Of a DNA stretch of 64,000 bases, positions 58,819 through 59,898 are shown one piece after another. The position numbers were made by a program, and so were the translations under genes. The notes beneath the pieces were generated by a model that was not told the origin of the DNA, made no database searches, and saw only the letters and a program-made list of their open reading frames with translations. The DNA lies in IMG/VR virus record IMGVR_UViG_3300042327_000544, positions 22,980-86,979 of that record; one strand, given 5' to 3'. Position 1 is the stretch's first letter. The number at the start of each line of letters is the position of its first letter. This DNA is from a virus.

Positions 58819-59747
58819 TGTATTTTGAGTTGACTGCTCCCGATAGGCTATCTCTTGAGATGGCTTATTGGGATGCACAAATCACTGGACTCGACCCTGA
58901 GTTTATGCCACCGTTGACATTCAATGTTGGAACTGGTAGTATAGAGAAAGTAAGTCGCATTCGTGACAAGTATAATTTAAAAGAATCATACTGGTCAGAT
59001 AGAGAAGCGACAGGATATAAGGAGAAGTAATGTCAGATTACAAAGATGGTTTTGATGACGGGTATAAGTTTGCTCGTGAAGAGATGATGGAAAGACTATC
59101 AGAGATTGATATTAACGATATCGATACTTGGATTCTTGACCGTCTTTGTGAAATGATAGAAGGCGGGAAACTATAATGGAAGATCTAAATCGTTGGATTG
59201 GCTGCGACCAATGCAGCTCAGCACAGGCGATGTATCTAATTAAACTTATGGATGGTGAGCTAGCATTTTGCGGGCACCATTTTAATAAGAACAAAGAGGC
59301 CCTTGACAAGGTCTCATACGAAGTGATAGAATTAAACAAAATCGAAGAAGCAGCACCTATACTAGAAACGGCGGAATAAAAATGGGCGACAGAGCAAACT
59401 TTGGATTCAAGCAATCTAATGACACTACTATCTTTCTATACGGACACTGGGCGGGCCACGGTATGTTGGAGCGCTTAGCGAATGCGGTTGAGGCTGCACG
59501 TCCAAGGTGGACGGATGAATCATATGCAACACGTATTTGTGTGTCACAAATGATAGGCGAAGACTGGAAGTCTGAAACAGGCTGGGGCTTAAGTGTTAAT
59601 AGAATTCTAGACAATGAGCACAAGATTCCTGTAATTGATTGGGCCCAGCAAACGTTTACATTAATGGAAGAGGACCTAACCACAGAAGTATTCAGTTTAT
59701 CTTTAGATAAATTCTGCAGTAAATACAGTCAACTAGTTGTGGTATAA
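58818..59747 (+). CDS. Four hypothetical proteins (58818..59030, 59030..59176, 59176..59379 zinc-finger-like, 59382..59747)
   Basis: TAATG coupling; CDQC..FCGHH; MGDRA..YGHWAG. Confidence 0.7.
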
Positions 59748-59753
59748 TTGGAG

Positions 59754-59898
59754 TAGGTCCAGGGACCTTCTTCATAAGTACAGGTGCGGCTACCAGGGGA
59801 TCCCCCAAGTCGCTAAGCAATGCAGGGCTTTTTACTTTCGTTGGTAGATCCTAGCGGCCTTTACTTTCTTAACCCTCAGCGCAAGCTGGGGGTTTTTG
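59754..59898 (+). ncRNA. Candidate antisense small RNA targeting early-gene leaders
   Basis: TGGTATAAT upstream, G-U-containing stems, GCAA-capped terminator, seeds complementary to AACGAAAG and AAGAAAG. Confidence 0.65.

Follow-up and report, generated by a model that had tools for sequence, protein, structure and literature searches.

Eleven early genes of an uncultured lake phage share the leader motif AACGAAAG, and an interval amid these genes carries its exact complement. Does this interval encode a small RNA, and could such an RNA act on the early genes as a class? An earlier reading of the sequence (the original prediction) proposed a small RNA with two seeds complementary to the early leaders. 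We addressed the question in the last 64 kb of the 86,979-bp IMG/VR virus record (hereafter the window, to which all coordinates refer; G+C content ~39%) and in the relatives of the phage.

DNA searches with the region, for near and for distant matches, identified no relative among the phages of GenBank. The portal protein shares 58-60% identity with its counterparts in Stanwilliamsviridae phages of Streptomyces, and several leaderless genes are present in the phage. These two features make the actinobacterial setting of the original prediction plausible, and an actinobacterium the likely host. With the DUF1281_C-domain gene downstream of the interval (60075-60866) as bait we retrieved 80 related loci, and a second, pattern-based scan of IMG/VR gave 80 further loci; the resulting homologue set has 93 distinct sequences, flanks included. 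The RNA family is common in lake metagenomes (more than 200 related contigs), and its stems, loops and leaders vary richly in nature. Complete related contigs measure 104-116 kb and have direct terminal repeats. A search of the literature on the motif and on actinophage small RNAs returned nothing relevant.

The candidate RNA gene and its neighbourhood

The stretch 59755-59898 is almost certainly a stand-alone small RNA gene of ~144 nt on the + strand (Table 1). The TATAAT box and the GCAA-capped terminator of the original prediction were both recovered, the former as part of an extended -10 element. The promoter has no TTGACA-type -35 element and carries AGTCAA where the promoters of its targets carry TGTCAG. 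The interval had been described as free of ORFs; coding frames of 36-49 aa do exist in it, but none has a ribosome-binding site (RBS). The locus thus has what is expected of a trans-acting small RNA, i.e., its own promoter and terminator and no coding frame. Among the 93 distinct homologues, an extended -10-like site was found upstream of the RNA in 69 and a hairpin followed by a T-run 3' of it in 61, while 51 have both promoter and terminator by the crude rules that we used. The RNA would be made as a discrete transcript. Metatranscriptome contigs of four RNA libraries span the region, including that of a relative of type B (with the seed UUC|CUUUCGUU, see below); strand, ends and level are not readable from these contigs, and DNA carry-over is possible.

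Table 1. Coordinates in the window of the RNA gene, its structural elements and its predicted targets.
Feature	Position	Strand	Remarks
RNA promoter	59727-59748	+	AGTCAA at 59727-59732, 10-nt spacer, extended -10 TGgTATAAT at 59740-59748 (TGGTATAAT)
P0, 5' hairpin	59755-59768	+	AGGUC/GACCU; MFE fold
P1, 5' strand	59778-59785	+	GUACAGGU; pairs with 59857-59864
P2	59786-59813	+	59786-59791 with 59808-59813; encloses P2b
P2b, small hairpin	59796-59799 with 59803-59806	+	GGGG with CCCC; inside P2
J2/3, conserved single-stranded junction	59814-59821	+	UAAGCAAU here; UAAGUAAA or UAAAUAAA in most relatives
P3 hairpin	59822-59855	+	GC base, variable stem, bulged A on 3' side, apical loop
Seed, tip of P3	59835-59842	+	CUUUCGUU; exact complement of AACGAAAG
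P1, 3' strand	59857-59864	+	GCCUUUAC; overlaps the first half of the second seed of the original prediction
Intrinsic terminator	59871-59898	+	10-pair stem 59871-59894, GCAA loop, U-run to 59898
Predicted targets	51342, 52397, 52846, 53117, 53765, 54773, 55686, 56904, 58341, 60059, 61577 (51342-61584)	+	AACGAAAG, 8 nt each; overlaps the RBS

The RNA genes themselves have ordinary sigma-70-like promoters, not those of the TGTCRG class. In relatives whose RNA lacks the seed loop (seedless relatives), the RNA promoter is of the canonical type, TTGACA-N18-TAAAAT or TTGACG-N17-TACAAT.

Searches of 59600-60100 with the covariance models of Rfam 15 gave only chance-level hits (E >1), at gathering as well as at permissive thresholds. 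The C4 antisense RNA model had no match at its gathering score or at E values up to 10, and neither the 6C RNA nor any other Rfam 15 family matched the RNA. A tRNA-Asp (57966-58039) was the only element of the whole window to reach threshold with Rfam. ARAGORN also found this tRNA alone (57966-58040), showing that the candidate RNA is neither a tRNA nor a tmRNA. A covariance model built on the RNA itself identified one copy per phage, with 59-88 bits in 72 loci, and a single copy in this genome. Judged from these comparisons of sequence and structure, the RNA is a new family.

In relatives the RNA mostly lies ~240 nt upstream of the DUF1281-type gene, and it could be the cis-acting 5' leader of this gene (at 60075 in the window), working as an attenuator or in a riboswitch-like way. 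Besides its position directly upstream in most relatives, this reading draws on the pairing energies, since the leader of the DUF1281-type gene is the best predicted partner of the RNA (-21.8 kcal/mol), on the 32 of the 93 homologues that lack an obvious hairpin and T-run, and on a putative homologue in Streptomyces phages that lacks a terminator and continues into a small ORF. Yet a strong terminator, a further ~130 nt and a separate TGTCAG promoter stand between the RNA and gene 60075, and in some relatives (L049, L054, L064 and the G001 type) the RNA is found elsewhere, 1.1-2.4 kb from the start of the DUF1281-type gene. We saw no alternative anti-terminator pairing, and the RNA is neither placed in the 5' UTR of a regulated gene nor endowed with an alternating expression platform, as a riboswitch or attenuator would be. 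A cis-acting leader is therefore very unlikely.

The neighbourhood has other conserved elements. In four loci of the G001 type (L010, L021, L029 and L033) a tRNA gene lies ~230-310 nt upstream of the DUF1281-type gene, at the usual site of the small RNA, and the scaffold RNA of this type is found 1.1-2.2 kb downstream of the start of the DUF1281-type gene. In the window, a block 3' of the terminator (GCCCGCAAAAG...GAGGGTA, within 59899-60025) is kept in relatives and is followed by inverted repeats (TGTGATC... and GGGGTGTATCACACCC). We considered this block as a part of the RNA and set the idea aside.

Conserved fold and covariation

Alignment, RNAalifold and counts of base pairs gave a conserved three-way junction formed by P1, P2 and P3. 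It is preceded by the 5' hairpin P0, whose sequence and length vary in the alignments of relatives and which is hairpin-forming in them. In P1, GGU/GCC is invariant across relatives and the adjoining pair is AU, UA, GU, GC or CG. Of the P2 pairs, one occurs as GC/CG/AU/UA and another as GU/UG/CG/UA, four types each; 99.2% of the cells are paired. Positions 1 to 5 of the P3 stem are paired in 42, 43, 40, 43 and 38 of the 43 distinct hairpins; no register other than that with a single bulged A on the 3' side gives these counts. The compensatory variants of this stem include AGGG/CCCU, ACGG/CCGU, AUGG/CCAU, AGAG/CUCU, AUCGG/CCGAU and AGCG/UGCU. Because MAFFT alignments misplace the seed in the type B sequences, the pairs of P3 were counted with a script that anchored the sequences at their ends.

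Overall, paired cells made up 98.3% of the total, compared with 83.4% after shuffling, and the covariation score was 0.379, against 0.111 in shuffles, none of which reached the observed value (0 of 500), and slid controls gave at most 0.096. The stem covariation that the original prediction expected from an alignment of homologues is thus present, and compensatory changes back the three-way junction. The fold of the single sequence is not significant by itself (z of -1.65 on the + strand and -1.02 on the - strand), so the structure rests on covariation.

The pairs also identify the strand. P1 has an invariant U-G pair and P2 has frequent G-U pairs, which would be A-C on the opposite strand; the + strand is therefore the RNA strand, in agreement with the original prediction. 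Its other structural details were not retained. The stem proposed between GTCGCTA (59809) and TAGCGGC (59852) is at odds with the comparative data, which pair 59808-59813 with 59786-59791 in P2 and place 59851-59855 in P3. The two-seed design had to be given up, because the second seed (59860-59870) is absent from most homologues and partly helical: 59860-59864 belong to the 3' strand of P1, and the rest is non-conserved spacer. We also considered the RNA as a copy of the 3' region of the 16S rRNA (GGUGCGGCU, AAGUCG). This was rejected because the GG inside GGUGCGGCU covaries with its P2 partner and differs in most relatives.

The seed loop and the leader tag

The motif AACGAAAG has 13 matches on the two strands of the window, against 1.48 expected, and none of 100 shuffles reached this number. 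Eleven are on the + strand, at the places given by the original prediction; each of them follows a TGTCRG-N10-TAnnnT promoter and precedes an ATG by 6-10 nt. Of the remaining two, both on the opposite strand, one is the complement in the candidate RNA (59835-59842) and the other, at 37636, is unrelated. Derived from the chance rate, the probability of finding the seed 8-mer in a given 145-nt stretch is ~0.002. The AAGAAAG leaders at 50954, 55383 and 56460 and the leaderless gene at 58159 were also found as predicted. AACGAAAG heads early genes in relatives too. The complementarity of the seed to several initiation regions, here 11 leaders of the window and similar ones in relatives, is a property of trans-acting small RNAs. 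The late genes, on the other strand, have AAGGAG/GGAGG-type sites, and CGAAAG is present in none of them. The 3' tail of the actinobacterial 16S rRNA (CCUCCUUUCU) predicts a plain (A)AGAAAGG; the C of the early leaders is therefore a special feature, which goes with the seed.

Conservation of the first seed in relatives that keep the leader motif had been set beforehand as a test of the original prediction, and the seed is conserved there. CUUUCGUU is intact in 72 of the 80 first loci (once per locus), in 72 of the 80 further loci and in 87 of the 93 distinct sequences. It is the only long invariant stretch of the P3 arm, the stem around it changing freely. The conserved seed lies in an unpaired region, as in trans-acting small RNAs, with a predicted openness that is moderate: in single-sequence folds its mean unpaired probability is 0.54, against 0.42 overall, and opening it costs ~3 kcal/mol on average.

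The promoters of the TGTCRG class (TGTCRG, ~10 nt, TAnnnT) head nearly all early genes of the window (50897-62678) and have no -35 element at 17 nt. This class is common to all the related phages examined (G001-G004), seedless ones included. Two nested starts in one frame were found at 58131-58818. The message from the TGTCAG promoter at 58131 is leaderless and begins with the ATG at 58159 (219 aa). A second TGTCAG promoter, internal at 58298, precedes a AACGAAAG leader and the start at 58357 of a shorter form of 153 aa, which alone would bear the tag.

The predicted duplexes between the P3 tip and the 11 tagged leaders range from -14.5 to -21.8 kcal/mol (z of -2.1 to -5.5 against shuffled loops), and those with the three AAGAAAG leaders from -7.4 to -13.2 kcal/mol. 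The two extended matches of the original prediction are real. The perfect match of 12 nt (TACCAACGAAAG) to the leader at 53761 extends the seed to 59835-59846, and the 14-bp match at 56904-56918 has one bulged G. In a genome-wide duplex scan of 28,984 windows, the leader at 53765 came first after the trivial antisense match, but only five leaders were among the top ~20. The 8-bp core of the seed is AU-rich. Duplex energies computed across phages with own and with swapped partners gave no support to a specific match (means of -15.8 and -15.0, own rank 0.42). An effect of the pairing is thus plausible in these models, and energetically not overwhelming. One site in a coding region (UUAGCGAAAGUAAAUU, window 54926-54955, in gene 54788-55012) pairs with the P3 tip at -20.9 kcal/mol, near the best leaders; it could be an internal target site or due to chance.

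The RNA might instead be a general mimic of the 3' tail of the 16S rRNA (CCUUUC), with host RBS of the GAAAGG type as its main targets (host shut-off) and the phage leaders as incidental ones. The seed holds CUUUC, and CCUUUC in type B, matching the actinobacterial 16S tail, and Hfq-independent pyrimidine-rich loops are common in actinobacterial small RNAs. However, the invariant part of the loop runs into GUU, which matches the phage-specific AAC and is left unexplained by the 16S rRNA, and the plain AAGAAAG leaders pair clearly worse than the tagged ones. We regard such a mimic as improbable.

Comparisons between genomes associate the loop with the C of the leaders. Promoter-led leaders with CGAAAG and with other GAAAG sequences number 11 and 2, 12 and 0, and 10 and 2 in the three seed-bearing genomes (G000, G002 and G003), i.e., 33 with C and four without. 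In the two genomes whose RNA has no P3 seed the respective numbers are six and six (G004, the genome of L077) and one and seven (G001), i.e., seven and 13. For example, AACGAAAGAAGGUCU in a leader of this phage corresponds to AAAGAAAGAAGGUCU in the orthologous leader of the seedless G004. Relatives without the seed loop mostly lack the C in their leaders, an observation that is new here. These counts are not phylogenetically independent and may reflect one or few evolutionary events.

The seedless scaffolds differ in what replaces the loop. P3 is reduced to GCGC-tetraloop-GCGC in the G001 type (L021, L029 and L033), and it is short in L022 and L077, where about half of the leaders still read AACGAAAG. 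L151, L177 and L186 have other loops, and their neighbours are leaderless or AGAAAGG-led genes; the scaffold of L135 is also without the seed. The P2b loop reads ACCCUUUCGG in L077 (2710-2789) and CCUUUCAG in L022 (2711-2789), sequences that might base-pair with CGAAAGG(G) leaders. This may be a relocation of the seed to P2b in this lineage, or a chance resemblance.

The flanks of the seed vary as well. In the leaders of the MPNW gene, GAA follows CGAAAG in 20 of the 28 cases with the type B seed, against two of the 97 with other seed types; this tracking of the flanks is clear in the MPNW gene, other genes giving mixed results. In type B the AA upstream in the leader is variable (AG, AU, CA), which looks like a shift in the register of pairing. 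Leaders in which AAC has become AGC keep the pairing through a G-U wobble. Among the relatives examined, we found no lineage with a changed seed and matching changed leaders.

Proposed mode of action and the scaffold without seed

We lean towards the view that the RNA is a c4-like anti-RBS regulator aimed at the whole early regulon. The tip of P3 would show CUUUCGUU and pair with AACGAAAG over the GAAAGG RBS of 11 early messages made from TGTCRG-N10-TAnnnT promoters. A pairing of 8-14 bp would cover the RBS up to the start codon and exclude the 30S subunit, which would lower the translation of the whole early set together. The AAC extension, and above all its C, would tag a message as a target, and late genes would be spared; this selectivity is plausible because the latter use AAGGAG/GGAGG sites without CGAAAG. 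We infer pairing in the cell, repression as the sign of the effect, and its timing from what was observed here, namely the co-occurrence of loop and tag, their exact complementarity, the invariant exposed loop and the fold.

Among known systems, the one that comes closest by analogy is the c4 antisense RNA of phages P1 and P7, a small structured trans-acting RNA whose loop sequences pair around the RBS and block translation (PMC12197685). It differs from the lake-phage RNA in several respects. The c4 RNA is processed from a longer transcript and directs two seeds at one operon (icd-ant), in the immunity of temperate enterobacterial phages. The lake-phage RNA has one conserved seed, ~11 dispersed targets and a three-way junction, and matches c4 neither in sequence nor in structure.

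In terms of function, the closest analogue would be RegA of phage T4, a protein that binds the RBS regions of many early messages and lowers their translation together. In both cases a single phage-encoded factor acts, or would act, on the RBS regions of many early messages, but RegA is a protein, whereas the proposed RNA repressor would recognise its targets by pairing with a shared 8-nt tag. The actinobacterial 6C RNA and other pyrimidine-loop small RNAs of Hfq-less Gram-positives have C/U-rich hairpin loops that pair with purine-rich RBS without a known chaperone. The 6C-type RNAs are host-encoded, with C-rich loops and different folds, whereas the seed of the lake phage includes the target-specific GUU. 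Most of the phage small RNAs known so far regulate a single gene or have host targets. If the proposal is true, one RNA addressing the whole early class by a shared tag would be an RNA-only timing device of a lytic programme, and would account for the difference in RBS between early and late genes.

The RNA may also be mainly a protein-binding or structural scaffold, i.e., serve as decoy or partner to some factor, of host or phage origin, that recognises the junction and/or the CUUUCGUU loop, in which case the complementarity to the leaders would be secondary or coincidental. A protein-binding site would equally produce an invariant loop, and the junction (GGUGC..CUA, UAAGUAAAGC, GCAGCC) is kept where P3 is a bare tetraloop hairpin or has other loops, and probably also in Streptomyces phages without P3. 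But it would be a coincidence for a mere scaffold that the invariant 8-mer of the loop and that of the leaders are coextensive and exactly complementary, given the low chance calculated above. Furthermore, the leader C is lost along with the loop, the flanks of the seed partly track those of the leaders, and no partner protein was identified. We consider it unlikely that the RNA is mainly a scaffold, and retain the anti-RBS regulator as the preferred reading.

The persistence of the scaffold without the seed (in the G001 type, in L151, L177 and L186, and in L135), together with the probable homologue in Streptomyces phages, still suggests that the scaffold has, or once had, a function independent of the loop. 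The RNA may thus be not only a switch, and P3 appears to be a later add-on to an older scaffold. One possible history, which we put forward tentatively, is that Stanwilliamsviridae-related actinophages have an old modular scaffold (P0, P1, P2 and the junction), into which one lake lineage inserted P3 as an address loop while tagging about a dozen early genes (AAGAAAGG to AACGAAAGG), such that one RNA would gate a temporal class of genes; sister lineages would carry other loops on this scaffold, and with them other addresses or functions.

The evidence for a P3-less homologue in Streptomyces phages comes from an unannotated intergenic stretch of phage BillNye (L105:1436-1610, NC_042105.1 115797-115971) that resembles the scaffold. 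A covariance model matched such intergenic regions with an E value of 0.02, and P1 and P2 show compensatory changes in four phages, which makes homology probable. Besides a TTGACA-N17-TACAAT promoter, the stretch has a 5' hairpin, P1 (10 bp) and P2, but no P3. Its junction (GGUACCCCUA...AGGGGCUAAGCA...AGCAGGCC) resembles that of the lake phages. The element has no terminator and continues into a 35-aa ORF. Its conservation extends to about seven cultured Streptomyces phages, and these probable relatives offer a route to experiments.
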